From a virus: a stretch of 64,000 bases of DNA. Both the position numbers and the translations under genes were made by a program. Where the stretch lies: IMG/VR virus record IMGVR_UViG_3300030333_002322; one strand, written 5' to 3'. Of the stretch, positions 4,584-61,858 are shown piece after piece. The notes below the pieces were generated by a model that was given only the letters and a program-made list of their open reading frames with translations, was not told the origin of the DNA and made no database searches. Every line of letters begins with the position of its first letter. Position 1 is the first letter of the stretch.

Positions 4584-4591
4584 TATTTATA
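4584..4591 (-). promoter_or_regulatory. T4 late (gp55) promoter, probably leaderless transcript
   Basis: TATAAATA lies 5 nt upstream of the ATG at 4578. Confidence 0.7.
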
Positions 4592-6972: not shown

Positions 6973-7934
6973 TCACCTTGTAGAGCACCCCTGGCATAGT
7001 CAGTAGCTCTATTTTCAAAAAAGTTTGTATGAGTAGGAGCATTAATCATCTCTTCTACCCACAGTAAAGGATTTCTTTTTACTTTAAAGATACCCTTCAT
7101 TCCCATACTTATAAGTCTTCTATCAGCTATATATCTGATATATTTTTTAACCTCGTCTGCTTCTAAACCTTCCATAGGTCCCATAGCAAAACAAGTGTCA
7201 ATAAATTTTTCTTCTAGTTCGACCATCTTCTCTGCGATGTCGTATATATCTTTCTTTAACTTGTCTTTCCACAAGTGTCTGTTCTCTCTTATGTATTGTT
7301 TAAATAATTGTATCATAGATTCTGCGTGCATTGTTTCATCTACAATAGACCAAGTAATAATTTGTCCCATGCCTTTCATCTTGCCATGACGAGGAAAGTT
7401 TAGTAACATAATAAAAGAACTAAATAACTGCATGCCTTCTGTAAATGCTGAGAACGCTGCAATATTAGCTGCTACTGATTCCTCTGTTCCATTTGCACCT
7501 GCAAGTTTCATAAAGTATTCATGTTTTTCTACCATTGTTTGATACTCTAAGAACTCACTATATGTAGACTCAGGCATACCTAAAGTCTCTATTAAATGTG
7601 CATATGCAGCAACATGCAATGCCTCTCTAGCAGCAAATCCTGATAACATCATACGAACTTCTGGTTGTGGGAAATAAGGTAGGTAATTGTTTACATAACC
7701 ACCTGCTACATCTATATCTCCCTGCACAAAAAATCTAAATATATTAGTTAAAAATGCTTTCTCTGGATCATTTAATTTCTCTTTCCAATCCTTTACGTCT
7801 TCTACCATTGGTACTTCTGTATGTAACCAATGTGATTGTTCATGTTTTAACCACGCATCATATGCCCATGGGTAACTGAACGGTTTAAAATAATCTCTTT
7901 CTTCTGTTAATCTCGGTTTCCTTGGTCTTGCCAT
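6951..7934 (-). CDS. nrdB: Ribonucleotide reductase class I beta subunit
   Basis: Di-iron ligands in EALH, FTEG and DETMH; C-terminal HTNFFENRATDY. Confidence 0.97.
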   Translation of the reverse strand: MARPRKPRLTEERDYFKPFSYPWAYDAWLKHEQSHWLHTEVPMVEDVKDWKEKLNDPEKAFLTNIFRFFVQGDIDVAGGYVNNYLPYFPQPEVRMMLSGFAAREALHVAAYAHLIETLGMPESTYSEFLEYQTMVEKHEYFMKLAGANGTEESVAANIAAFSAFTEGMQLFSSFIMLLNFPRHGKMKGMGQIITWSIVDETMHAESMIQLFKQYIRENRHLWKDKLKKDIYDIAEKMVELEEKFIDTCFAMGPMEGLEADEVKKYIRYIADRRLISMGMKGIFKVKRNPLLWVEEMINAPTHTNFFENRATDYARGALQGEWQEVWA

Positions 7935-8605
7935 TATTCTTTCCCTATATCTTTATAACCTGCTTTACTAAACGCCCAATCTCTTTCCTTACACCAAAAA
8001 CACTCTCCACATCTTCCTCTAGGTTGCATAGTACATGTATGCGTTATTTCTGAAAGAGCTTCAAGTCTACCTTCCTCGTATGCTATTCTAACCAACCATT
8101 CTTTAGTTAGTTTCTCGAAAGGCATTTTAATTATATCTTCATAAATTGTTCCTGTGGCAAATACTCTGCCTTTAGGTAATTCATCTGACCATTCTAATAT
8201 GTCATCTGCAAATGGATTTGTACCTAAAAACATAACATCAGCACCTTGTTCTATATAAGCTTCTCTAATTCCTTTATTCAACCAGAATACTAATGTTTCA
8301 TCATCTGGTTCCCTATTACTTTTATCTACTGGACCAACAGGTATTGTATGTATCCTTTTAGTTCCAAAATACTTACAAGATTCTTCTAATACTCTATTTG
8401 CGTAGAGAATAGAACCATCCGGTTTAGGTACAGTAAATGCTTTAATTTTAACTTTGTGTTTTAGGCATTGTTCATAAACCATATGCCATAATACAGCGCT
8501 GTCAAAACCACCTGACATAATGACTCCAATTGTTTTATCGGATTCATGCCAGGGTTTTATATAGTCATAATAAAATCGTGCAAGAGGTGTTAAATCTTGT
8601 TCCAT
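7934..8605 (-). CDS. QueC-like PP-loop ATP pyrophosphatase
   Basis: SGGFDS PP-loop and a C-terminal C-x7-CxxCxxC zinc site. Confidence 0.65.
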   Translation of the reverse strand: MEQDLTPLARFYYDYIKPWHESDKTIGVIMSGGFDSAVLWHMVYEQCLKHKVKIKAFTVPKPDGSILYANRVLEESCKYFGTKRIHTIPVGPVDKSNREPDDETLVFWLNKGIREAYIEQGADVMFLGTNPFADDILEWSDELPKGRVFATGTIYEDIIKMPFEKLTKEWLVRIAYEEGRLEALSEITHTCTMQPRGRCGECFWCKERDWAFSKAGYKDIGKE

Positions 8606-10401
8606 TAGCCTTCACAAGCTACACATTCACCGTCAGCCAAATCAGCCATATCTAATTCTTGTATAATCTCTCTTTCAATTCGTTTAGATACTTTATCTGC
8701 TTTGCCAAGTTTTTCTGAACGACAATAGTATAGCGTTTTTACTCCTGTTTTCCATGCCAAAAAGTGTACAGCATGCAAATAGGCAATATTTACATTTGGC
8801 CTAAAGAATAAATTTAAACTTTGTGCCTGATCTACAAATTCCTGTCTGTCTGCTGCATGTTCTATTATCCATCTCTGGTCTATTTCCATAGATGTTTTAA
8901 ATACTTGTCTTTGTTGGTCACTCAATTGTTTTATATGTTGTACTGAGCCATCATTACTTATTATTGACGACCAAACCTCGTCATAATTTGTTCTCGGGTG
9001 TTGTTCACAGTACTCTTTAATGAGTTTGTCCAAGTACTTATTTTTGTTGAGGTAAGCACCCGATAAGGTATCTTGTCTGTAAGCATTAGCTCTAAACGGT
9101 TCAATAGATGGCGAAGTGTTGCCCATAATAATACTACTGGAAGCGTTAGGAGCAATAGCCATGACATGGCTAAAACGAAGCCCTCGTCCCTTAGCATCTG
9201 GAGCTTCTCCTCTTTCATCTCCAAGTTGTTTATTTGCTTCATCTAATTTAGTCCTAATATGTCTAAATAATCTCAAGTTGGCACCTTTTGCTTCACTGCT
9301 TTCCCATGCAATATTATTCTTTTGCAGGTACGCATGAAAACCTAATGCACCAACACCTATACTCCTTTCTTGTGAGGCAGAAAATTTAGCTCTTGCTACC
9401 TCATCTGGAGCTTTGTCTATAAAATGTTGTAAGACATTATCTAACATCTCAGCAACATCTCTTAAAAATTGTGGATTCTTACTCCATGAATCATAGTGTT
9501 CCAAGTTAACTGATGATAAGCAACATACTGCTGTTCTCTCTTCATTCGTAGGTAAAATAATCTCAGAGCACAAATTACTCTGATGTATTTTTAAACCTAA
9601 ATCCTTTTGGAATTCAGGCATCTCTCTGTTGCTTGTATCAATAAAATGTAAGTAAGGTTCTCCTGTCTCCATTCTCATTTCTAATATTCTTTGCCATAGT
9701 TCTTTGGCAGAAACAGTATCTTTAATTAAACCACTATGAGGATCTGTTAAGTTCCAACCATCATCACAATCAGGATCTGTCATACAGGTTTCAATTATTC
9801 GCATGAAATTATCTGTAACATTAATTCCGTGATGTAAGTTAAGGCATCTCATATTTGGATCGCCTGTTGGTTTCCTCATTTCAAGGAACATTAAAATATC
9901 TGGATGACTAATATCAAGGTAAGTAGCATAGCTACCCCGTCTAGTACGCCCTTGACGGTATGCCAAGCACGAGGCGTCATAAGTCTTAAGATGAGGCAAG
10001 ACGCCAGTAGACTTATCGTCAGAAGATCTAATGCCAAAGCCAATACCAACACCACCACCAAGCATAGAAAGCCAATTTGTTTCTGATAAGTTTTCAACTA
10101 AACCCTCCGCTGTGTCGTTAATATAATTTAAAAAACATGATATAGGCATACCACGTCTACTTCTACCATAAGATAGAATAGGAGTACTGTAGGATAGCCA
10201 ATGCTTACTACTGTACTCATATAATCTTTGTGCGTGTTCTGGATTACTTGCAAAATTAGTACTCACGAATGCAAATCTTTCCTGTGGAGATTTTTCTTCC
10301 TCCATCATATAACTTTCTCGTAATCTTTGTAAACCTAATTGATCAAAGAGTTCATCACGATCATAATCAATTTGTATTCCTAAATATTCTGCTTTTGCCA
10401 T
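8605..10401 (-). CDS. nrdA: Ribonucleotide reductase class I alpha subunit (short, no evident ATP cone)
   Basis: PISCF, SNLCSEI, AIAPNASSS, KTLYYCRS and C-terminal CVACEG. Confidence 0.97.
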   Translation of the reverse strand: MAKAEYLGIQIDYDRDELFDQLGLQRLRESYMMEEEKSPQERFAFVSTNFASNPEHAQRLYEYSSKHWLSYSTPILSYGRSRRGMPISCFLNYINDTAEGLVENLSETNWLSMLGGGVGIGFGIRSSDDKSTGVLPHLKTYDASCLAYRQGRTRRGSYATYLDISHPDILMFLEMRKPTGDPNMRCLNLHHGINVTDNFMRIIETCMTDPDCDDGWNLTDPHSGLIKDTVSAKELWQRILEMRMETGEPYLHFIDTSNREMPEFQKDLGLKIHQSNLCSEIILPTNEERTAVCCLSSVNLEHYDSWSKNPQFLRDVAEMLDNVLQHFIDKAPDEVARAKFSASQERSIGVGALGFHAYLQKNNIAWESSEAKGANLRLFRHIRTKLDEANKQLGDERGEAPDAKGRGLRFSHVMAIAPNASSSIIMGNTSPSIEPFRANAYRQDTLSGAYLNKNKYLDKLIKEYCEQHPRTNYDEVWSSIISNDGSVQHIKQLSDQQRQVFKTSMEIDQRWIIEHAADRQEFVDQAQSLNLFFRPNVNIAYLHAVHFLAWKTGVKTLYYCRSEKLGKADKVSKRIEREIIQELDMADLADGECVACEG

Positions 10402-36066: not shown

Positions 36067-37326
36067 CTAAAATTTTACATCAAAGGTTTTGTTAAAATCT
36101 GTGCCTCTTCTTATATCATGTTCTTTTACAAAGTTCCAAAAATCTTTTCTATGTTTTTCTAGTTCTTCACCTTCGAATCTATTTGCCTTTATCCACTCTA
36201 CAGACTTCTGAAATTTTACAACCTCTCCTTCTGTAAACTGAGGATAGGTTTTCATTGATTTTAATCCTTCTTCCATAATACTTATATGAGTATCGTCGGC
36301 AATTTGTGCTGAGAGGTGTTTTGGATCTACCATATAAGGCATGTCTATTGTTAGATGAGGAAAGGTTTGTTTCATCTCTGCCATTTTAAAAATGAATTCT
36401 TGTATATTGAATATAGATAAGAAATTAAATGTACACATGATACCTACTTCTATTCCATTAGCTAATATTCTAAGTAGGTTTTCTTCAAATTGATCTACTT
36501 TTAATCCATGTCTAATATACTCTGCTTGTTTCCCCCATGAATCTATACTGGCATATATTCTAGTATTAGGTATATCTTTTGCTTGGTTAATATATTTTTG
36601 TACTCTTTCTTTCGTAACCATAAGATTAGAATTACAATGGAATGTCAATCCTTCTCTAGGATTTGCCTTAACATATTTTAGAAGTTTATATGTATTCTTA
36701 TCTAATAAAGGCTCTCCTCCTGTTACTCTAAGAACAAATAAATGTTCATATGCCTGTGGAAACCATTTCCAAAACTTATCTACATAGGGAGAGTTTTCTA
36801 TTTGAGGATTATCTATAACATTATAGTCCTCAGATAGTTTATAAGGACCATGCTCTTGTATTTCTTTTTCCCATGAAGTACTAAACACAGGACCACAATA
36901 ACTACATGACATTTGACATTTATTTGTGAAAGATATTTCTAAATATTTAGGATACACATAATCTAGTCCTGCGTCTGTTGCTTCTTTGACTATATGTCTA
37001 TTATGTTTAAAAAATTGAGCTGCAAGTGTTTGCCTATCTGATATCTCACCAAGATCCTCTACTTCCCAACAATAAGAGCACTCTGAAGGTCTGCTACCTT
37101 GCAACATCTCTGCTCTTTTTTCTATTTTTTGAGGTGTGTTATGTAAGTCAGAGTCTAAAGGAATTTTCTGTGTAGGACAATGATAACAGGAATGACTTTG
37201 CCCTGTTCCTAAGTGCATTTCTAAATGATACCATTTTAGTACACAGAAACCAGGCCCTACTTTATCCTGTTCGTCTTTGATAAGTTGGAGGGCTTCTATT
37301 TGATTTTTATTTAGCTTTCTTTCCAA
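36067..37326 (-). CDS. Radical SAM protein with an N-terminal Cys-rich (twitch-like) region
   Basis: CQMSCSYC, TGGEPLL and an N-terminal C...CYHC...CSYCW. Confidence 0.85.
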   Translation of the reverse strand: MERKLNKNQIEALQLIKDEQDKVGPGFCVLKWYHLEMHLGTGQSHSCYHCPTQKIPLDSDLHNTPQKIEKRAEMLQGSRPSECSYCWEVEDLGEISDRQTLAAQFFKHNRHIVKEATDAGLDYVYPKYLEISFTNKCQMSCSYCGPVFSTSWEKEIQEHGPYKLSEDYNVIDNPQIENSPYVDKFWKWFPQAYEHLFVLRVTGGEPLLDKNTYKLLKYVKANPREGLTFHCNSNLMVTKERVQKYINQAKDIPNTRIYASIDSWGKQAEYIRHGLKVDQFEENLLRILANGIEVGIMCTFNFLSIFNIQEFIFKMAEMKQTFPHLTIDMPYMVDPKHLSAQIADDTHISIMEEGLKSMKTYPQFTEGEVVKFQKSVEWIKANRFEGEELEKHRKDFWNFVKEHDIRRGTDFNKTFDVKF

Positions 37327-41664: not shown

Positions 41665-42729
41665 TTATAAAAGGTAACTTTCCATGTCATCTGGTAAGTC
41701 CTCAAACTCTAATAATCCTAACCCTTCATATCCTGGTCTAACTTCATCAGTCAACAATCCTATTCTTTTAATATTAGGAATGACTCTTTTTAAGAGATGC
41801 TTTCTCACAATTTTATATTGCTTACCTATTTCGTCTTCTTCAAATTGGCATGCGTAATCATGTGCATCCTGTGGATCAAATCCAAACTGTTTATAAAACC
41901 CTGGTCCAAAACCAATTCTATTAAGTAATGTTGTGCAACATTCTAAAGCATACCCTGCTCTATAATTTATCTCATCTTCAGTTAGAGTCTTGAGATAATC
42001 ACCTAAATAATTAATACCAAAAGTTATATGCCTTGCTTCATCTTGTAATATGTAATCCATTATCTGTGCTAAGAGAGGGTCATTGGTATTGTTTCTACAT
42101 ATTTGAAATGTACTTACTGCTAATCCTTCCACCACTATCTGTACAATAATAAACTTTAAATCCCACTCTTTAGATGATAATGCAATATCAAATATGTTTT
42201 TTACACCTTCTCCAATAGGGTAGACACAACCATATCTTTCTGCAATATATCTGCTCATAGTTTCTGCATGTCTTGCTTCGTCAGCAGCTTGTTGTGCTGC
42301 AAATAATTTTGCTTGGTATGTTGGTGCACAGCTTACAAGTTGACCACAACATATTGCACCCATTTGTTCTCCATGCAAGATAGATGATAACTGCCACAGG
42401 TTTTTATGTTTTTGAAATTCTCTCTTATCTTCATCAGAAAGCTCTCTATATGGTCTATAATTAAACCAAAAAGGATCGTCTCCCTCAGGCCATTGTCCTA
42501 ATACAACAATGTCTCCTGGATGTTCTGTATCCCACTCAATATCCTTACTAGGATTCCAGGCTCTCTCCTTACCCAACTCATATATTTTTCTAATACGAGT
42601 ATCCTCATTTCTATAATCCCAATTATAAAAAGAGTCCAAAGGTGTACTAAAAGATTCTGCTAAATCTGAATCGTTCTGAGATGGAAACTCCTGAAAACTA
42701 TCAGGAGTATTGACTTGGGTTATTTTCAT
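41665..42729 (-). CDS. Ferritin-like di-iron oxygenase (AurF-like)
   Basis: LHGE, DEARH, VEG and a second DEARH di-iron pattern. Confidence 0.75.
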   Translation of the reverse strand: MKITQVNTPDSFQEFPSQNDSDLAESFSTPLDSFYNWDYRNEDTRIRKIYELGKERAWNPSKDIEWDTEHPGDIVVLGQWPEGDDPFWFNYRPYRELSDEDKREFQKHKNLWQLSSILHGEQMGAICCGQLVSCAPTYQAKLFAAQQAADEARHAETMSRYIAERYGCVYPIGEGVKNIFDIALSSKEWDLKFIIVQIVVEGLAVSTFQICRNNTNDPLLAQIMDYILQDEARHITFGINYLGDYLKTLTEDEINYRAGYALECCTTLLNRIGFGPGFYKQFGFDPQDAHDYACQFEEDEIGKQYKIVRKHLLKRVIPNIKRIGLLTDEVRPGYEGLGLLEFEDLPDDMESYLL

Positions 42730-42744: not shown

Positions 42745-43104
42745 TCAATCATCTAAGTAGTGCTTAACTGCTTGCAAATCATGTTCATTGAGTGCAATTA
42801 TAGCATAATGTAATACTTTCATTAGATCCCTTCTGTGGTCATCTAAGTTACCCTTTTTGCCATAGCGTTGTGCATACTTTAGAATATTACCTATGGCAAA
42901 TCCAATTCCGTGTCCACAATCACTGATAAATTCCGTTGATTGGAATTTGTTTTTACTGTAATGACCATTATAAGTTTCATCGATATACGATTGGAGCTCC
43001 CTTATGAGAGCTCCCTCGTTGAACTTATAGGGTACATCGCCTTTCTTATTCTGAGGCATCTTCATGTATCTCCTGTTCTGTTTGACTTTCAAAATCTGCT
43101 TCAA
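42745..43104 (-). CDS. DUF3310-family (T7 gp1.7-like nucleotide kinase) protein
   Basis: HYS...GFAIGNILKYAQRYGKKG...DLMKVLHYA. Confidence 0.75.
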   Translation of the reverse strand: MKQILKVKQNRRYMKMPQNKKGDVPYKFNEGALIRELQSYIDETYNGHYSKNKFQSTEFISDCGHGIGFAIGNILKYAQRYGKKGNLDDHRRDLMKVLHYAIIALNEHDLQAVKHYLDD

Positions 43105-44230
43105 GTTCTACTGTAGGATCTACCTTAGTGTACAGATCTATAAAAGCCTGTTTGGTGTCATCATCAAATCTGTTAACACAAAGTTGAACAGCCTTCTGCT
43201 TATCACCAAATACTGCAAACGCATTAACAATATGTTCCAACCTTCTAGTTGAAATCAACTCGTCAATTGCTCCATCGTAATAAGTTCTTCTTATTACATC
43301 ACTCCAAGTTACCAAGTGAGTTGCAAACTCATCGTCTGAGATATTAGCCTTAGCCATTTTCTTAACAACGATCTTTTTCTCGGTAGCCATTGTAGGATAC
43401 TCCTGCTCCACGGTTATAGCAAACCTTTCTAGGAATGCCTCGTCGAGTATGTTGGCTGATATGAATTTGCCATCATCTGAACCTCGACCTTTTGTGTTGG
43501 CTGTTGCAACAATGTTAAAGCCGGGAGCAGGAGTTACGGTTTCGCCTGTCTTCTTGTTAAAATAGGGCTTGCCTTCTAATATTGCTTGTAAGCACATCAG
43601 CTTGTTTGAGCCTCTATCTATCTCATCAAGAACTAGGACTGCCCCGCGTTTCATCGCGGTGAGGACTGGGCCTTCCCTATAAACGACGTTACCGTCAACT
43701 AGAGTATTGCCACCGATTAAATCATCCTCATCAGTTTCAATACTAATATTCACTCTTATTGCCTCTCTTTTAAGATTAGCACATACTTGTTCAACCATTG
43801 TAGTCTTACCATTACCTGATAATCCTGAAATGAATATTGGGTAAAACATATTGCCTTGCAATACTGCTTTCAGGTCTTTGTAAAAACCAAATGGAACAAA
43901 AGTTTCGTCCTTACTTGGAATCAAGTCTTGAACATCAACTCTTAATTTAGCTTGAACAAGCTCTACTGGTTGGGTTTCAACTACTGCTAGTGGTACTCTA
44001 GCTGCTGGAGCTACTGGAGCTGTTTTAGCTACTGTCTGTCCACTGAACATAGTTGTAAGATTATAGACACCTCTGTCTACTTTATAGTCTGGTTTGTTCA
44101 CCAACCAAGCTGGGAAACCAAGTCCTATTTCAGTAGCAGTTTCTATAATCTGCTTTCTAGTAAAAACACCTGTACCGTTGTCCTTAGACTCCAGGGTGTT
44201 AATTAAGTTTTCTCTATCTATTGCTTTCAT
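43046..44230 (-). CDS. CobS-like AAA+ ATPase (MoxR family)
   Basis: GLSGNGKT, VLDEID, TANTKGRG and LDEAFLERF; start placed after the GAGGA SD. Confidence 0.9.
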   Translation of the reverse strand: MKAIDRENLINTLESKDNGTGVFTRKQIIETATEIGLGFPAWLVNKPDYKVDRGVYNLTTMFSGQTVAKTAPVAPAARVPLAVVETQPVELVQAKLRVDVQDLIPSKDETFVPFGFYKDLKAVLQGNMFYPIFISGLSGNGKTTMVEQVCANLKREAIRVNISIETDEDDLIGGNTLVDGNVVYREGPVLTAMKRGAVLVLDEIDRGSNKLMCLQAILEGKPYFNKKTGETVTPAPGFNIVATANTKGRGSDDGKFISANILDEAFLERFAITVEQEYPTMATEKKIVVKKMAKANISDDEFATHLVTWSDVIRRTYYDGAIDELISTRRLEHIVNAFAVFGDKQKAVQLCVNRFDDDTKQAFIDLYTKVDPTVELEADFESQTEQEIHEDASE

Positions 44231-44250
44231 ATCTAATGTCCTCACATTTA

Positions 44251-44315
44251 TTATTTAATATACCGTTATTATGCACTCTTGTGAACCAAAGGTCAAGCAT
44301 TTTTTCAAAAGATTT
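44251..44315 (-). repeat. ~60-bp early promoter repeat, copy B
   Basis: TTGACC-N17-CATAAT (44268-44296); near-identical to copies A and C. Confidence 0.9.
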
Positions 44316-44323
44316 GCACATTT

Positions 44324-46753
44324 TTACGCTACTAACTCTATGATTTGATTAAGGAAAACTCTTTGGGTTGATTTTCCCTTCTGAAATTTCCTAAATCCTC
44401 GAAGTAAATCGCCTTTTTTATTGGATTTTACCTCTAATTCTTCGTCTTTTATCTCTAGTTCTCCCTTACCTTTAATAAGGAACCTAGCAGTGTATCCAAA
44501 GTCGTCTTCAACTCTCATAAACTTACGAGCCAATGTTTCTTTCCAAACATCTTCATCAATGTAATGTCTGGAAACTTTATTACAGAAATTATTCTTACTA
44601 ACTTCCTGTTCAAATCCTCTTCTAGAATTGTCATCTAATAAGTGGAAGTTGATTAGAACAGATTGTGTGATTTTCTTATAGTATTCTAAAAGTAATATCA
44701 CATTCTCTTTTCTATTATTATAATAACTATCATTAGTTGGAATTGAGTATGTTGTTGCTCCATCTTTGATTACAAATTTCTTATCACTATATCTAGCCCA
44801 GTGCTGATCTGAATCTGGGTCATCAACAAAAGTAAGATCATCAGTTGGGTCACCATCTGTTAGAATTATTGTAGTCAATTTTTCTACATTGTAATTCTTT
44901 TGGAATCTTTTTGCTAACTCAGGAGCCAATGTAAGTGCTGCTACAAGTGGTGTACCACCTAGTCTAAAGAATCTGTTATCAAGGTAAACATAATGTCCGT
45001 CAGTTAAATCTGAGTAATACCTAGAACGCTCATAACCTTTTTTCATTACTTGTAGGTAAGCCATTGCGTCGTTCCATTGAACATTGTTCCACTTAGAGCT
45101 AAGTAAGTGTGCAAAACTAAAGTTACCTCTACCACCTTCTGCTGTAAGTTCGTCTACCAATTGTTGTTTGGTATGACTTGATGTTCTTTTTCCTGAATCA
45201 CTAAATCCATAAACATCAAAAGGAATGTTAACTCTTCTGCAAAACATTGCCATCGTTTCCATTTGTTCTAATGTACCCTTCATCTGTCTGTTCATGCTAC
45301 CTGACATGTCTACGAACATTAGGATACCATGATTCTTACCTTGTGGTACGATTTGAGTTTGGTGGAAAAGATCTTCAGTAATTTTGTATGCCCAAAGCTT
45401 GTCCTCATTCAACTTACCTGTTTTAGAAATTCTAGATTTCTTAAATGATGTTGCTGCTTTTTTAAGTTCAAAAGTTTGAGCCATTGAGTTAATTATAGAT
45501 CTTTGTTTTGGTTCATACTCTTTCCAAAGTTTCTGACCATAACCTTTGACATCTGTAATCTCTTCTTCTTTCCAAGATCCATAACTGTCGTCTTCTCTAT
45601 ATGTCTTAGTAACTCTAGCACATTCGTTCCAATCATATACCTCTTCCATTGGAACAACATAATCAGCTACTTCACCTTTAAAAGGTTTGACATGTTTTAA
45701 ATCTTTTGAATCTTGATCAACTAAACCAGCCTCATTTTTTCTAAACTGTGAGTCTGTAATTGAATGTCCATCTTCATCTAAGTAGTCTTGAATCTCATCA
45801 AGAAGATCTTTTTCCTTTTGTGCTTCAGCAACACTATTTAGATCTTCTTTTTCTTCTTCTTCAAGTTTTCTCTCACGATCTTCTAAAGCTTGTCTTTCAT
45901 CCCAAGTCAATCCGTCGTATGATGATCTGCTTGCATGTTCATCTCTACCATTTTCATCTTTGAATTGGTCTTCATCAAGTTCTTGATCATTGTCCCATGC
46001 TTCGTTTTGAAGATCACGTCTACGATTCTCTTCTTTTTCGTATGCTTCTTCAGCTGCATCTCTTTCTTCTTGGATTTGTTCCTTAGCAGCTTCCCTTTGT
46101 TGCTGTCTTTCTTGTAACTCTTCCTGTCCTTCTTCTGTGAAAGGGTAAGGCATATTCTTTTCAATAAAGTTCGAGAGGTCTTCTTGTCTTTCCTGTTGTT
46201 CTTTTTTATGATTGCCATAAAGTTCTTCAGCAAGTGCAATAACCTGGTCCCAAGTTTTAACTTGGCCAATTCTTTCTACTAAATCTTTTTCGTGTTCTGC
46301 GAATGTAACACCAAGTAAATGACCCACTTTATAATGTAGGTTTACTCTGTCAATAAGTGGTAGTTGGTTAACGTCTAAGTTACCAATACCAAAAAAGTCT
46401 TTGTCAAATAATTCTTTGTAACCTTTGTAGAAGGACTTAACTAAACCAGGATATCTTGCTTTAACTTTCTTTTCAATACGAACATCTTCAACAACATTAA
46501 GGAATGCTTTTTTGTTCATGTCTTCAACTACGAAATCATGCCATCCTTCTTCAGGAGTTTCATGTGCGTGTCCAACTTCATGGCCAATAAACAGATCATA
46601 TAAGTCTGTAGACATTTCCTTCCAAACTGGAAGAAGTAATTTTCTGTTCTTAACATCAAATGCCGCTGTAGGCATGTTTTTATCATGAATGACTTCGATG
46701 TTTTCCGTTGCCAAACATTTTGCTAATATTGATTTTGTTTCTATCTGGTTCAT
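44324..46753 (-). CDS. CobT-like protein with an N-terminal HExxH peptidase-like domain, an acidic linker and a VWA domain
   Basis: HEVGH, NVVEDVRIE, MIDAS motif DMSGS, GGTPL and LTDG. Confidence 0.85.
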   Translation of the reverse strand: MNQIETKSILAKCLATENIEVIHDKNMPTAAFDVKNRKLLLPVWKEMSTDLYDLFIGHEVGHAHETPEEGWHDFVVEDMNKKAFLNVVEDVRIEKKVKARYPGLVKSFYKGYKELFDKDFFGIGNLDVNQLPLIDRVNLHYKVGHLLGVTFAEHEKDLVERIGQVKTWDQVIALAEELYGNHKKEQQERQEDLSNFIEKNMPYPFTEEGQEELQERQQQREAAKEQIQEERDAAEEAYEKEENRRRDLQNEAWDNDQELDEDQFKDENGRDEHASRSSYDGLTWDERQALEDRERKLEEEEKEDLNSVAEAQKEKDLLDEIQDYLDEDGHSITDSQFRKNEAGLVDQDSKDLKHVKPFKGEVADYVVPMEEVYDWNECARVTKTYREDDSYGSWKEEEITDVKGYGQKLWKEYEPKQRSIINSMAQTFELKKAATSFKKSRISKTGKLNEDKLWAYKITEDLFHQTQIVPQGKNHGILMFVDMSGSMNRQMKGTLEQMETMAMFCRRVNIPFDVYGFSDSGKRTSSHTKQQLVDELTAEGGRGNFSFAHLLSSKWNNVQWNDAMAYLQVMKKGYERSRYYSDLTDGHYVYLDNRFFRLGGTPLVAALTLAPELAKRFQKNYNVEKLTTIILTDGDPTDDLTFVDDPDSDQHWARYSDKKFVIKDGATTYSIPTNDSYYNNRKENVILLLEYYKKITQSVLINFHLLDDNSRRGFEQEVSKNNFCNKVSRHYIDEDVWKETLARKFMRVEDDFGYTARFLIKGKGELEIKDEELEVKSNKKGDLLRGFRKFQKGKSTQRVFLNQIIELVA

Positions 46754-46776: not shown

Positions 46777-46831
46777 TTATTTAATATACCGTTATTATGC
46801 ACTCTTGTGAACCAAGAGTCAAGCATTTTTT
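46777..46831 (-). repeat. ~55-bp early promoter repeat, copy C
   Basis: TTGACT-N17-CATAAT (46794-46822) containing ACTCTTG-GTTCA-CAAGAGT. Confidence 0.9.
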
Positions 46832-46852: not shown

Positions 46853-48301
46853 TCAAAGACTTAGGAGTCTGGACTTATAAAAATCGAATTTTTCTTGTTC
46901 TCGACCCACTATTTCTGAGTCCAAAACGTCATTTGGATACCCTAGGGACGTTTTTTTGAACTGTTCTGCAGTAAACCCTAAGTTCTGGAACCTATTAAAG
47001 AAGGTCCAGGCACCACGTTTTAAGGGTTCTCCTTTGGCGAAATCTAACTGTAATTCTTGTGCCAATCCTACACAATCTTGCCTTGTAATACCATCATCTC
47101 TTGTCCAACCACCCTGTCCGTCTAACTCATATCCATATTGTCCAGGGTTCTTAGCCATTAGACTACCATCATGTGGGTGTATGTATAGTGGGTGATAAGA
47201 AACTACATCTACGGGGCAGTCTGGCTGCTTTAACCACTCATTATTAGCTCGTAATGTATCAGGTGTATCATGTGGTAACCCTACAATTAGTCCTGTAAGT
47301 ATAATCATGTCAGGACATTCCTCTCGTAATCTCATCAACCCATCTTTAAGTTTTTCACCTGGCATACCTTTACCTATTGCTTTACCTGATAATGTATTAA
47401 AGGATTCAACACCAAAAAAGACACTTCTAAGACCACTTTCATATAATTGTTTTGCTGTCTCCCAATGAGATACTATTAGATCTAATCTAGCAAAACTACT
47501 GAACTCAATATTGAAATCCATTTTCATAAATTCCTCATGGAACCTTGCTACTTTTTCTGGACTATCATTATAGGTATCATCACAGAACATAAACCCTGTA
47601 CTTCCAAATCTATTCTTTGCATCTTCTATTTCTTTTCTAACTAATTCAGGAACTCTATTAAACTCCCATATCTTTTTACCATTAAGATCATAACTACAAT
47701 AGCTACATTTAAATATGCAACCCCTAGCAATTTCTATTGGTAAATGTTCGTTAGGAAATATTAAATCATCATCGTCCCATAATATAGAACAGGTTGAAAA
47801 TCTTTCAAACCCTAAGTTCAATGTTCTTTTTGATGGTCTTTTTTCTTCTATTTCTTTTGTAATTTGTAGGACACTTTCCTCACCTTGTCCTTGTATAATA
47901 ATATCAAATGTTTTATCATCAGGTCTTATATGTCCTACCTTTGTGCCTCCTGCTACAATCTTACAATCAGGATTAATTGATCTTATTTCATCTACTAATT
48001 CTGCCCAATCATCTCTTCCTGTAACAGTCATTTGTGCAGTAAAAACATTCGTTCTGTTTTTACCTGTTTGGAGCATGCGTTCATACTCTAAAAATGTAGT
48101 ACTAAGTCCAACCCATAATGTATTCTTACCAACAAATTTTTTAATTATGTTTATAAGTTCTTCTGTTGACCACTTAGTAAAATATTCTATAACCTGTACT
48201 TTATATCCATGAGCTCTTAGTTCAGATGCAATACGATATGTCCCAGCATATCTTCCAAAACCGGGGCTACATACATCTGTGAATAGAATTATATCAGGCA
48301 T
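46853..48301 (-). CDS. Cobalamin-binding (class B) radical SAM enzyme
   Basis: N-terminal B12-binding-like Rossmann (VGLSTTF, KIVAGG, GQGEE), then EIARGCIFKCSYC, FCDDTYN, FFGVES and IVGLP. Confidence 0.85.
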   Translation of the reverse strand: MPDIILFTDVCSPGFGRYAGTYRIASELRAHGYKVQVIEYFTKWSTEELINIIKKFVGKNTLWVGLSTTFLEYERMLQTGKNRTNVFTAQMTVTGRDDWAELVDEIRSINPDCKIVAGGTKVGHIRPDDKTFDIIIQGQGEESVLQITKEIEEKRPSKRTLNLGFERFSTCSILWDDDDLIFPNEHLPIEIARGCIFKCSYCSYDLNGKKIWEFNRVPELVRKEIEDAKNRFGSTGFMFCDDTYNDSPEKVARFHEEFMKMDFNIEFSSFARLDLIVSHWETAKQLYESGLRSVFFGVESFNTLSGKAIGKGMPGEKLKDGLMRLREECPDMIILTGLIVGLPHDTPDTLRANNEWLKQPDCPVDVVSYHPLYIHPHDGSLMAKNPGQYGYELDGQGGWTRDDGITRQDCVGLAQELQLDFAKGEPLKRGAWTFFNRFQNLGFTAEQFKKTSLGYPNDVLDSEIVGREQEKFDFYKSRLLSL

Positions 48302-48309
48302 CTCATCAG

Positions 48310-48317
48310 TATTTATA
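48310..48317 (-). promoter_or_regulatory. T4 late promoter
   Basis: TATAAATA lies 8 nt upstream of ATG 48301. Confidence 0.6.
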
Positions 48318-49857
48318 TACTGACGTCGAGACTAAGAGTTAGCTCTCTACCACCTGCGCTATACCCTGGTAAAATTTCAAAGTGTCTGTTCATAATATCT
48401 TTGATCTGTAAACCTAAACGATATTTCCTATCGAAATAATATCCTAAATTAAAATTAAATGTTGACATATCATCTATAGGTCTGCCATCAAACTCTAATC
48501 CTTTATCGTATGCTCCTACATATTCAATCATATAATCAAAGTCACCCCAACCATTATAGTAAGATATCTTTGTTTGATATTTAGGAACCCTAAGTTTGTC
48601 TGTGTCTGTGTATTGTGCCAATACATACCAACTTCCGTTCTCAGTTATTATATGATTAGCATACTTAATACCTGTAGATGTGTACTCTCCAGAGTTTATA
48701 TATTGATATTGCATAAAATCAAAATCAATACCCTCATCAAATTCATATCTCCATGCAGTAAATTTTCTATAACTTATTTCAGCACCTTTACCTTCTTCAG
48801 GTTTTAAACTAGGGTTTGCACCCACCCAGTCATCCCCAAATCGTTCATATAAATTAGGAGATCTAAAACTGTTACCTAAGGAAAACTTAATACCTTTTAA
48901 ATCTAATCCAAATCTAAATATGTTTGTTGACTCTTCACGACGATAACCAACTCCAAAATGTGTATTTTGCCAATTCACATATACTGCTGGTCTCTCATCT
49001 TCTAGATCATTATATTTTTCTTTCTGATATGTTGCACCCAATAAAAAGTCACCTATACTTTCCTTAGCGTCAATGTAATATCTATCATTATCTGCTTGCC
49101 AAGTTTTATCTCCTGCACTAAGATGTTCAGTATCATTTCTACTGTAACCTAGTGTTAACCAATCATTTCGTATTGATGATGTTAACTTTGTGCCATTTTG
49201 TTTACATTCATCTGTATTACTCCAGTCAACAGCATAACAATTATCATACTCATATTCATAATCTGTAACTGTAGAAAGAAACTGAAATCCTTGCCACTCC
49301 ATTTTAGATCTTAATGTTGTATTTTTAAACCAATCGTCTTCACTATTGTCTGTCATTACAGAACCGCTAGTACCATGGTATCTTGATACAAGTAAATGCT
49401 TATTACCAAACATCACATAGCTTTGGTCTTCACCACCTTTACTATATAATACGTCTTGCCAATATTCATCTTCTATCAATACTGTTCCTGCCATACTTGA
49501 ACTTCCAAATAATACAGAGTTAGGTCCTGATATTACTTTATAAGATTGATATGAAGGAATGTCTACACCAAAGTCATACCAACCAGAGCCAGGATCGTTT
49601 ACAGGAATTCCATTTCTAAAAACTGCTGTATTTTTTACGTCAGTTCCATTTAATGTTGCTCCAATAAAACCACCCCTACCTCCAGGTGCATATATTTTAA
49701 TGGGTTCTATTGCTTCTATTGCTAGGTTATCTGTTTCAGGATCTGAAAACCCGTTTTTGATTGTTGATCCAACAATTACGATTTCTTCTATATCACTTTG
49801 TTGCGCATAGACAGACGTGGCCAAAAAGGCCACGACTAATACTACCAAATTTTTCAT
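48313..49857 (-). CDS. TonB-dependent outer-membrane receptor, BtuB-like
   Basis: Signal peptide, TonB box EEIVIVGS, plug (NGIPVND...VISGPNSVLFGSSSMAGTVLI), FRSPNLYE...NPSLKPEEG, and C-terminal GYSAGGRELTLSLDVSI. Confidence 0.85.
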   Translation of the reverse strand: MKNLVVLVVAFLATSVYAQQSDIEEIVIVGSTIKNGFSDPETDNLAIEAIEPIKIYAPGGRGGFIGATLNGTDVKNTAVFRNGIPVNDPGSGWYDFGVDIPSYQSYKVISGPNSVLFGSSSMAGTVLIEDEYWQDVLYSKGGEDQSYVMFGNKHLLVSRYHGTSGSVMTDNSEDDWFKNTTLRSKMEWQGFQFLSTVTDYEYEYDNCYAVDWSNTDECKQNGTKLTSSIRNDWLTLGYSRNDTEHLSAGDKTWQADNDRYYIDAKESIGDFLLGATYQKEKYNDLEDERPAVYVNWQNTHFGVGYRREESTNIFRFGLDLKGIKFSLGNSFRSPNLYERFGDDWVGANPSLKPEEGKGAEISYRKFTAWRYEFDEGIDFDFMQYQYINSGEYTSTGIKYANHIITENGSWYVLAQYTDTDKLRVPKYQTKISYYNGWGDFDYMIEYVGAYDKGLEFDGRPIDDMSTFNFNLGYYFDRKYRLGLQIKDIMNRHFEILPGYSAGGRELTLSLDVSI

Positions 49858-49871
49858 AATGTACTTAAAAT

Positions 49872-50465
49872 TTATTTGCTATAATATTCTGCTACTTCCG
49901 TGCAGCCCCTAATACCCATTGGAACATAACCTGCATGTCCACATGGATAAGAATAGCGTTCCACCAAGTCTCGGTGTTCACTACTTCTCCTTTTACCATA
50001 AGTTCTATTTACATATGACTGTGCGTATGAACCTAAGTTTAACATACGATCAATCTCCATGTAATTGAACCCAGAGTCTTTCATGTATCCAATATCAATA
50101 TCCCTACATCTAGGAAGTGTTGCATCTGGATTTACATACCAACAGAAGTCTTCCCTAACTCTAGGTAAACTTACTCTTGGTTCTATAATAGTTCCGTCAG
50201 GTAGAATTAAGATACTAGGTTGATAATAATGTCTGTAATTACCATGCCTACGTCTTTGTTCATACCCACCATAACTATTATATCTGTCATTGTAATATGG
50301 GTGAGGATAGTCGTCCCTATACTCTCTATTCTTTTGTATCTCTGATCCCAATAGTCCGCCAAAGATAATACCAGCAATTACATCTGATGTATCTGCTGCT
50401 TTAACAGGTGTTGCCATAAATATGGCTGCTAATACTGCCCCTACTATTATTATTCTTTTACGCAT
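49872..50465 (-). CDS. Exported hypothetical protein
   Basis: Signal peptide (VKA/A) and a glycine-zipper-like AGIIFGGLLG. Confidence 0.55.
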   Translation of the reverse strand: MRKRIIIVGAVLAAIFMATPVKAADTSDVIAGIIFGGLLGSEIQKNREYRDDYPHPYYNDRYNSYGGYEQRRRHGNYRHYYQPSILILPDGTIIEPRVSLPRVREDFCWYVNPDATLPRCRDIDIGYMKDSGFNYMEIDRMLNLGSYAQSYVNRTYGKRRSSEHRDLVERYSYPCGHAGYVPMGIRGCTEVAEYYSK

Positions 50466-60982: not shown

Positions 60983-61858
60983 TTATGTTCCCCAGGCATT
61001 GCCAAATAAATCTATATGTAATCTAGGACTGAACTTATAACCTGTTTCCATACATGCTTCTGCAACACCTTTTGCAGTTAGAGTTTGTTGTTCTAGGGTT
61101 GCACCTTCTGGCATACAATATACAGCATCTAATTTTACACCTGCCTCTTTATATGCCTTAACAAAAATATCTACCTCTTCAAAATCATCCATATCTCTAA
61201 CTACAAATTTATTATATAAATGACTGTTCCATACCCCATTCATTGTGTTCAGTGCCTCGGGGTTCAAGGCTTCTTCTCTCTTTTCTCCACTTAAACTTAA
61301 CTTAGGAGATGTACTCCATGTTACATGTAAGTCAGGAAGGTTATTAAAGAATGAACATAAGTCACCGCTAACAAGTTGTGTGCCATTAGTTTCAAATGTA
61401 ACATTCTTTAATCCCTTCTTCCAACATAGTTGGAGTAGAGTTGGCCAACACCTTTGCCAACCCAATAGCGGTTCACCGCCTGTTATGACTAAATGGATAT
61501 CTTCTTTTTCATCAAACCTACCATTAGGTAATAAACTTATTACATGTTCAAAGACTTCATCTATTGTCTTAGTCATTTGTAAATGTTTATATTTCATAGC
61601 CCAAGATGCTGAACTATCACAACCTATTGGTGTAACAGGTAAATCGTCTATAGACTTATAAGCTTCTGGGTGATTTTTATCTGCCTTTGGATCTGTGTAG
61701 TAAGGCATTTCTTCTACAGGAATCATATTATCTCTTTCCTGTCCAAATCCTCTACACTCAAAGTTGCAACCAAACACCCTAAGGAATACGCTAGGGACAC
61801 CAACGAATCTACCTTCGCCTTGAATACTATAAAATGCTTCTGAGTACCTGAGTTTCAT
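60983..61858 (-). CDS. queE: 7-carboxy-7-deazaguanine synthase
   Basis: FYSIQGEG, FLRVFGCNFEC...GCDS (long insertion before the third Cys), TGGEPL, ETNGT and SPRLH. Confidence 0.92.
   Translation of the reverse strand: MKLRYSEAFYSIQGEGRFVGVPSVFLRVFGCNFECRGFGQERDNMIPVEEMPYYTDPKADKNHPEAYKSIDDLPVTPIGCDSSASWAMKYKHLQMTKTIDEVFEHVISLLPNGRFDEKEDIHLVITGGEPLLGWQRCWPTLLQLCWKKGLKNVTFETNGTQLVSGDLCSFFNNLPDLHVTWSTSPKLSLSGEKREEALNPEALNTMNGVWNSHLYNKFVVRDMDDFEEVDIFVKAYKEAGVKLDAVYCMPEGATLEQQTLTAKGVAEACMETGYKFSPRLHIDLFGNAWGT

Follow-up and report, generated by a model that had tools for sequence, protein, structure and literature searches.

The window analysed here, a stretch of 64,000 nucleotides from the IMG/VR virus record IMGVR_UViG_3300030333_002322, belongs to an uncultured marine T4-like myophage (G+C content approximately 35%, almost every gene on the minus strand) and carries a gene, designated P0001, for a compact protein of 514 amino acids that resembles TonB-dependent outer-membrane transporters. 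The nearest known family of this receptor is that of the cobalamin (vitamin B12) transporter BtuB, as judged by hidden Markov model (HMM), profile-profile and predicted-structure comparisons, although membership at the curated thresholds fails. The lineage to which the receptor belongs is distinct, restricted to phages and strongly miniaturised, whereas its fold and the concept of auxiliary metabolic genes were already known. That the protein is a real TonB-dependent importer appears probable. The whole reading that we favour, with some reserve, is that the protein works as an importer in the outer membrane and belongs to a miniaturised BtuB-like family specific to phages, with a corrinoid as the most likely ligand. 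Immediately downstream lies a gene for a radical S-adenosylmethionine (SAM) protein, P0002, and the meaning of this adjacency is considered together with the alternative explanations.

Architecture of the receptor

The open reading frame (ORF) of the receptor occupies positions 48313-49857, stop codon included; it and all other features located below lie on the minus strand. As read from the sequence, the protein would begin with a signal peptide (residues 1-18, positions 49804-49857) cleaved after VYA, with QQ following, and each of the 57 aligned family members has a hydrophobic leader at its N-terminus. Next comes a TonB-box-like motif, IEEIVIVG (residues 23-30, positions 49768-49791), which was recognised by its conservation in the family and by profile alignment to BtuB. 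A global profile alignment pairs the stretch IEEIVIV with DTLVVTA, the TonB box of BtuB. Conservation of E24 and V28 reaches at least 90%, and in most family members the motif comes after the signal peptide. The plug, or hatch, domain (residues ~33-130, positions 49468-49761) was assigned from Pfam family PF07715 and from alignment to the BtuB plug; the Pfam match itself covers residues 57-125 and scores 27.6 bits, above the gathering score of 23.9.

The remainder of the protein (residues ~136-514, positions 48316-49452) is predicted to form a beta-barrel whose extracellular loops are mostly only 2-4 residues long. This barrel was recognised solely through profile-profile and structural comparison, and its limits come from the strands that DSSP assigns in the predicted model. 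The AlphaFold (AF2) model, built on the 57-sequence alignment, has a predicted local distance difference test (pLDDT) score of 90 and a predicted template-modelling score of 0.88, and consists of a plug and then a barrel. Its DSSP assignment comprises 23 strand segments, which is compatible with 22 strands on the assumption that one kinked strand has been listed twice. A complete, compact TonB-dependent receptor had been described in the first-pass annotation of this DNA, and the ORF, the signal peptide, the Plug domain and the full-length predicted barrel all bear this out.

The same annotation had remarked on a C-terminal Ile as atypical. The residue is indeed there, but it is ordinary within the family, whose termini include L in 17, W in 12, Y in 11, K in 8, I in 3 and F in 2 of the 57 members. 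The C-terminal beta-signal of the receptor thus lacks the canonical aromatic end, and most family members end in a hydrophobic or aromatic residue. Decay of the receptor and radical SAM genes was considered and ruled out by the ratios of nonsynonymous to synonymous substitution rates (dN/dS), which are 0.20 for the receptor, compared with a 91%-identical relative, and 0.07 for the radical SAM gene; for comparison, the value for ClpP is 0.15.

Relationship to BtuB

Superposition of the receptor model with VIA-align gave the highest scores for E. coli BtuB (Z 36-38, best 37.7; root-mean-square deviation 2.4 Å over 489 residues, 20% identity), with residues 19-514 of the model lying over BtuB residues 13-594, so that the 22-strand barrel is matched end to end. 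The second-best structural match is to BtuB1-3 of Bacteroides thetaiotaomicron (PDB 8BLW, 8BMX, 8P97; Z 33-34, 14% identity), which transport B12 in partnership with additional exported proteins, the BtuG lipoproteins. The heme receptors ChuA and ShuA follow at Z 31, then siderophore, copper and zinc receptors at Z 28-30, and Foldseek ranked the matches in the same way.

As a control against BtuB-likeness by default, the family profile was scored against four E. coli receptors. BtuB received an hhalign probability of 99.1, a score of 146 and 93 HMM bits, compared with a score of 49 and 18.6 bits for CirA, 36 and 11.8 bits for FepA, and 34 and 8 bits for FhuA. Among NCBIfam models the top one is TIGR01779 (TonB-B12), which is matched by 47 of the 57 family members, while TonB-hemlactrns (heme/lactoferrin) is matched by 25 and TonB-hemin by 14. 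The best NCBIfam match of the ten nearest cellular proteins that were tested is likewise TonB-B12, in every case under its cut-off. A phmmer search of the receptor against PDB sequences returned nothing significant, and BtuB is visible to profile and structural methods only. HMM, profile-profile and predicted-structure comparisons therefore agree with the first-pass description of the receptor as BtuB-like, and the protein stands apart from siderophore and sugar receptors.

E. coli BtuB (PDB 1NQE-1NQH, 2GSK; models TIGR01779 and NF007926) and the phage receptor have in common the signal peptide, TonB box, plug and 22-strand barrel, together with a C-terminal motif GxxAGGRE and an NLxPE region; in profile alignment the family is ~25% identical to BtuB over ~455 columns (probability 99). 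Mature BtuB is longer than the phage protein by ~80 residues, and hardly any of its extracellular loops are left in the latter. In the global profile alignment, ~97 BtuB residues have no counterpart in the receptor, many of them in loops. Following the strand order of the model, only two extracellular loops remain substantial (residues 167-175 and 203-218), and these align to BtuB loops 178-195 and 229-240, which become ordered upon calcium binding and help to form the B12 site (PMC5424791).

The calcium-site residues of BtuB (D179, D193, D195 and D230) were taken from that study and mapped by profile alignment only. The loop between strands 3 and 4 (residues 167-175, positions 49333-49359) carries the motif D170 N171 x E173 x D175, which aligns to BtuB D193-N194-D195. 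The counterpart of D193, phage D170, is Asp in 48 of the 57 family members, and that of N194, phage N171, is invariant (57 of 57). In the loop between strands 5 and 6 (residues 203-218, positions 49204-49251), Y204 and D205 align to BtuB Y229 and D230; the former position is Tyr in 55 of 57 members and the latter is Asp in all 57. Also invariant are E173, D175 and the Cys pair C207/C218, a pair that is unmatched in the E. coli BtuB alignment and that may form a disulfide. Conservation in the receptor is highest in the plug, the TonB-box-like motif and the two loops of the ligand site. Because features of both energy coupling and the ligand site are thus conserved under purifying selection, a working transporter is favoured over a relic or a passive decoy.

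Distribution and phylogeny

Relatives of the receptor are carried by at least 333 IMG/VR viral contigs. A word-indexed search recovered more than 100 clusters of 488-570 amino acids from marine metagenomes, plus variants of 650-690 amino acids, and an exhaustive HMMER search found 24 representatives with E<1e-30, followed by a sharp fall to ordinary receptors of 590-700 amino acids at ~1e-13. All ten of the metagenome contexts inspected are phage-like, nine of them with DNA fetched. Searches of 50,697 deposited phage genomes, mostly cultured isolates, with blastn and tblastn gave no match, and a relative was also absent from 185,579 prokaryote species, represented by one genome each, in a pattern scan specific to the family, which was not aimed at distant cellular cousins. 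A quick maximum-likelihood tree groups the 30 phage receptors in one clade on a long stem, with a Shimodaira-Hasegawa-like approximate likelihood-ratio (SH-aLRT) support of 100.

A possible cellular copy was suggested by the IMG/VR label "provirus" on record G006 (locus L088). This candidate was rejected, as its gene order is the phage arrangement of locus L003; in both, the receptor is surrounded by a UvsX-like gene, a gene for a 345-amino-acid protein and a DEAD helicase, as in a lytic T4-like phage, and the label looks doubtful. The 650-690-amino-acid variants (L006, positions 7001-9019; P0093, P0133 and P0084) are nested inside the compact clade and occupy the same genomic place as 524-amino-acid versions in sister phages. 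The nesting of longer variants within a compact clade indicates that the family both shrinks and regrows a segment.

Literature searches aimed at phage-encoded BtuB-like or TonB-dependent receptors brought up no account of a phage BtuB-like family, but only a podophage note without relation to it and, as the one related item, a SusC-like gene in the marine megaphage Mar_Mega_1, a phage-encoded homologue of TonB-dependent receptors that was proposed to be an auxiliary metabolic gene (PMC9723777). The PHROG family of phage TonB-dependent receptors, phrog_5687, matches the receptor weakly (E 9e-10), and its profile of 760 positions is full-size. The present family differs from the SusC-like Mar_Mega_1 gene and the full-size phrog_5687 proteins in being compact (~490-570 amino acids, with some members of 650-690) and BtuB-like.

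Proposed function and alternative explanations

In the mechanism that we infer, which covers outer-membrane insertion, TonB dependence, timing of expression and ligand, the receptor would be made during infection. It is apparently co-transcribed with the replication and repair block, since no convincing promoter was found directly upstream of it. The protein would be exported by the host Sec pathway by means of its signal peptide, inserted into the outer membrane by the host beta-barrel assembly machinery (BAM), and energised by host TonB-ExbBD through the TonB-box-like motif, with the phage supplying only the outer-membrane gate. Statements on whole genomes are drawn here from relatives, beyond the 64-kb window: the 99%-complete genome of relative G002 contains no TonB_C or ExbB domain, so that the phage must bring the outer-membrane part only and rely on host TonB-ExbBD. 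The ligand site would be situated on top of the plug, framed by the two untrimmed loops homologous to the calcium and substrate loops of BtuB. An imported corrinoid, either cobalamin or a precursor, could then serve cobalamin-dependent enzymes, including the class-B-like radical SAM proteins of many such phages; in the window, the radical SAM gene might be expressed either through coupling of its translation to that of the receptor or from the motif at the junction that resembles a late promoter.

For the ligand, a corrinoid is the first choice, though the assignment must be held loosely. It is suggested because BtuB is nearest by three independent measures, because the retained loops are the calcium and substrate loops of BtuB with their motif partly kept, and because there is partial co-occurrence with class-B-like radical SAM enzymes at the level of genomes. 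A broader proposal, and a more speculative one, is that several lineages of uncultured marine T4-like phages install a stripped-down BtuB of their own and capture corrinoids for radical SAM enzymes, and possibly for host MetH.

A number of observations weigh against corrinoid import. Plug is the sole Pfam family in the receptor at E<=0.01, the barrel domain PF00593 (TonB_dep_Rec_b-barrel) not being reported. The receptor scores 46.6 bits with TIGR01779, whose cut-off is 599.7, and 41.1 bits with NF007926, whose cut-off is 836; even the best TIGR01779 match of any family member (E 2.4e-20) is far under the cut-off. BtuB is the smallest solved transporter of its kind, and its top structural rank may partly reflect size. 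At the putative calcium site, D179 of BtuB is replaced by L156 (mostly Q in the family), D195 corresponds to the variable position S172, and D241 is unaligned. A B12-sized pocket would be shallow, given the many loop residues of BtuB that are missing. There is no cobalamin riboswitch, as no Rfam family was detected in the window at the gathering score, and none upstream at E<=1. In the loss of D179 and D195, in the lack of such a riboswitch and in being found in phages only, the receptor is unlike E. coli BtuB. The cellular sister group of the phage clade was not resolved in the quick tree, and the importer reading presumes that the host has TonB. The ribonucleotide reductase of the phage resembles class I enzymes (the small subunit was found in relative L007), and deoxynucleotide synthesis would therefore not need B12. 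The structures of AprD4, MiaB and RimO, which have the same two-domain fold without using cobalamin, match P0002 nearly as well as those of cobalamin-dependent enzymes, so that the class B architecture of P0002 is supported and its use of cobalamin is putative.

The distribution of the gene pair likewise argues against a tight link between the receptor and the radical SAM protein. The gene order in the main lineage is gp46, (methyltransferase), deformylase, orf116, ClpP-like, (exported protein), receptor, "peptidase" and CobS. An orthologue of the radical SAM gene stands between the receptor and the "peptidase" only in five loci whose receptors are at least 67% identical to that of the window. 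In 27 syntenic loci, with receptors 42-55% identical, the "peptidase"-CobS pair comes directly after the receptor and there is no radical SAM gene. Other lineages have the receptor flanked by a gene of the UvsX region and a UvsW-like helicase, near MetK, or by a membrane protein and RNase H. Looking from the opposite side, a receptor is found within 10 kb in 3 of the 80 best radical SAM loci, all three from the sublineage of the window, and in none of five large records that bear the radical SAM gene, two of which are at least 93% complete. Since the radical SAM gene adjoins the receptor in one sublineage only and the pairing is unconserved in both directions, the adjacency is a recent, lineage-specific insertion at a variable spot, and the gene is not an obligate operon partner. 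Conservation of the adjacency had been named beforehand as one of the points on which the first-pass proposal would stand or fall, and as a conserved unit the pair failed.

More distant class-B-like paralogues (27-30% identity) do occur 4-6 kb from the receptor in eight other loci, and such paralogues are found somewhere in 6 of ten receptor-bearing records, across at least three genome architectures, in what is a small sample uncorrected for shared ancestry. The only near-complete record among the ten encodes three of them. In this weaker, genome-level form a link between the receptor and class-B-like enzymes survives, and the idea that the receptor feeds B12 to a viral enzyme is partly supported.

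Of the alternatives, a dedicated two-gene cobalamin module, in which uptake is coupled to a B12-dependent methylase as originally proposed, is the one that we consider least probable. The 11-nucleotide spacing of the two genes, the conservation of their junction within the sublineage, the combination of a BtuB-like receptor with an enzyme of class B fold, and the co-occurrence in 6 of ten records would all be expected of such a module. However, these are set against the 27 syntenic relatives that do without the intervening gene, the scarcity of receptors near the best radical SAM loci, and the two nearly complete radical-SAM-bearing genomes that have no receptor. It is somewhat less of a stretch, although still improbable, that the protein is a device for surface remodelling or exclusion. 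It might vie with host receptors for TonB or BAM, take the place of a host receptor that competing phages use, or serve as a loop-less substitute that offers other phages and colicins no docking site. Extracellular loops are the usual docking sites of phages and colicins, and in this receptor they are cut to almost nothing. Precedents exist in Llp of phage T5 and in Cor, both of which block FhuA, and in prophage PA-2, which swaps a porin. The restriction of the receptor family to phage DNA and the small exported protein that accompanies it in the main lineage would also suit this explanation. Nevertheless, the ligand loops, plug and TonB-box-like motif are the most conserved parts, as expected of a transporter, so that exclusion fits poorly, and the exported neighbour is missing in other receptor-bearing lineages.

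The rival to which we assign the greatest weight, while still regarding it as unlikely, retains an importer of the same type and changes only the ligand, to iron (as siderophore or heme) or another metal complex, for use by the iron enzymes of the phage in iron-poor seawater. Heme and hemoglobin receptors are the next-best HMM families after TonB-B12, ChuA and ShuA are the next structural matches after the BtuBs, and the matches to BtuB models, being below their cut-offs, assign no substrate. Moreover, the window is rich in iron-dependent enzymes, and the receptor occurs far more widely than its pairing with a neighbouring B12-type enzyme. Against an iron or heme ligand, BtuB is ahead on every measure (Z 37.7 versus 31 and 28-30, and 93 versus 8-19 HMM bits), and the conserved acidic and Tyr positions map to the calcium loops of BtuB.

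Implications

In the sea, cobalamin is scarce and traded as a micronutrient. If a widespread phage gene raises the uptake of cobalamin or iron in infected cells, then outer-membrane transport would join the processes that marine viruses rewire, and models of vitamin or metal flux through such cells would change. Should the ligand be a corrinoid, the family would constitute a viral vitamin-acquisition gene family without cellular counterpart and the smallest natural design of a 22-strand TonB-dependent transporter. The family represents a natural minimal TonB-dependent transporter, in which a plug, 22 strands and the two calcium and substrate loops of BtuB are retained, and this design may be useful for asking what a TonB-dependent gate requires. 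The case also calls for caution in annotation, for a single gene adjacency can mislead on function when, as here, the B12-type neighbour is a recent insertion.

The radical SAM neighbour and the junction

The radical SAM gene P0002 (482 amino acids, positions 46853-48301) has a class B architecture according to its ORF, Pfam and NCBIfam matches and predicted model. Its CxxxCxxC cluster motif (residues 195-202, positions 47696-47719) lies in the radical SAM core, and C195, C199 and C202 are invariant in 48 homologues. The match to Radical_SAM (PF04055) scores 60.3 bits, and an N-terminal B12-binding-like domain (PF02310) scores 25.3 bits, under its gathering score of 32.1. NCBIfam matches are to the B12-radical SAM families PhpK, ladderane-type, HpnJ and BchE. 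The AF2 model (pLDDT 90.5) has its best Foldseek matches in cobalamin-dependent TsrM, OxsB, MgmA, TokK and CysS (E 1e-15 to 1e-11). With these enzymes P0002 shares an N-terminal Rossmann-like domain and a CxxxCxxC radical SAM core, at an identity of 12-18% and a template-modelling score of ~0.55. At the level of the predicted fold, with TsrM and OxsB as top structural matches, the earlier assignment to class B thus appears to hold.

Proteins of the P0002 type are encoded by at least 544 viral contigs, jumbo genomes included. Genomes of jumbo-phage size (200-365 kb) with such a gene are L113, L127, L133, L151, L161 and L171, the first of which is IMG/VR record G007, with 364,576 bases and terminal repeats. 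Among the 50,697 deposited phage genomes there is one weak match to the family, in an uncultured gut-phage record. In L012, the gene adjoins sugar-nucleotide genes (PMM and mannose-1-phosphate guanylyltransferase), and these neighbours hint at a sugar or nucleotide-sugar substrate.

The receptor and radical SAM ORFs are separated by exactly 11 nucleotides (48302-48312), as first reported. The junction (48302-48317) consists of this spacer and a T4-late-promoter-like match, TATAAATA, which extends over the receptor stop codon (48310-48317). An assembly artefact at this point was ruled out by a 4070-nucleotide contig from another sample that bridges the junction with 4 differences, and by three IMG/VR contigs with the same arrangement. 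The junction is retained as CATAAATA / CATAAATACTGATG in relatives with a 67%-identical receptor. The window contains 13 copies of TATAAATA, every one of them on the coding (minus) strand (sites at 4584, 16108, 18933, 20773, 21721, 28002, 35174, 37776, 41637, 42735, 48310, 60263 and 63168). Four of these copies (4584, 21721, 42735 and 48310) end 6-9 nucleotides before a start codon, which suggests nearly leaderless late messages or a motif that serves at once for stop and restart.

The copy at the junction ends 8 nucleotides before the radical SAM ATG and would leave almost no leader. It may act as a late promoter whose transcript would have next to no leader; alternatively, the radical SAM gene may be expressed just by translational coupling to the receptor. 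The first-pass claim that this gene has its own late promoter therefore stands in so far as the motif is present, strand-biased and conserved, but is weakened by the mere 8 nucleotides to the ATG. Between the radical SAM gene and the "peptidase" gene there is a sigma-70-like promoter candidate, TTGACT-17-CATAAT (46794-46822), a consensus match only, in a region where sigma-70-like matches overall are not enriched relative to shuffled sequences. In a marine metatranscriptome (run X20), two 151-nucleotide contigs fall inside the receptor gene (49292-49566, 99-100% identity). They are a hint of transcription, which we do not count as expression because DNA carry-over is possible.

Genomic context

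Upstream of the receptor, and probably on the same transcript, a gene at 49872-50465 encodes, on translation, the 197-amino-acid exported protein P0390. It combines a signal peptide with conserved cysteines, a stretch rich in Tyr and Arg, and a glycine-zipper-like segment, VIAGIIFGGLLGSEIQK, that is conserved, and it has no recognisable family in Pfam, PHROG, NCBIfam or further comparison (scores all <0.9). Among the fetched loci, 15 from the main lineage have a homologue upstream of their receptor gene, and the other receptor lineages have none; the homologues of main-lineage relatives, in the same position, are shorter (132-142 amino acids). An obligatory exported partner in the style of BtuG or SusD was considered and rejected, since the neighbour is confined to the main lineage. 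Unlike BtuG, P0390 is not a lipoprotein, has no detectable BtuG similarity and is missing from other receptor lineages.

The replication and repair genes of the window include gp46- and gp47-like nucleases, gp43 polymerase, gp44, gp45 and UvsX. Further genes encode a class-I-like ribonucleotide reductase and, as a pair (43046-46753) identified by PHROG and Pfam matches and by synteny, a "peptidase" (809 amino acids, phrog_459, no Pfam domain) and a CobS-like AAA+ protein (399 amino acids). The latter scores 74 bits with the CobS NCBIfam model, against an equivalog cut-off of 558 bits. The pair is common to cyanomyophages and pelagimyophages, and the interval from gp46 to the pair seems to be a hotspot for the insertion of accessory genes, among them deformylase, ClpP-like, receptor and radical SAM genes. 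Core proteins of the window are 46-49% identical to their counterparts in cyanomyophages and in OM43 and SAR11 myophages, and at this level of identity the phage has no cultured close relative. No tRNA genes were found in the window, and tRNAs therefore provide no clue to the host.

A second radical SAM protein (419 amino acids, 36067-37326) was considered as a paralogue of P0002 and rejected on comparison of the two. Together with P0002 it belongs to the iron-dependent enzymes of the window, which comprise two, possibly three, radical SAM proteins (the possible third, at 60983-61858, being a 4Fe-4S protein with a weak Fer4_12 match), the class-I-like reductase, an AurF-like di-iron oxygenase (354 amino acids, 41665-42729) and a peptide deformylase. 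Near-identical copies of the receptor and radical SAM stretch itself are present in 19 DNA runs, which come from at least 10 studies.

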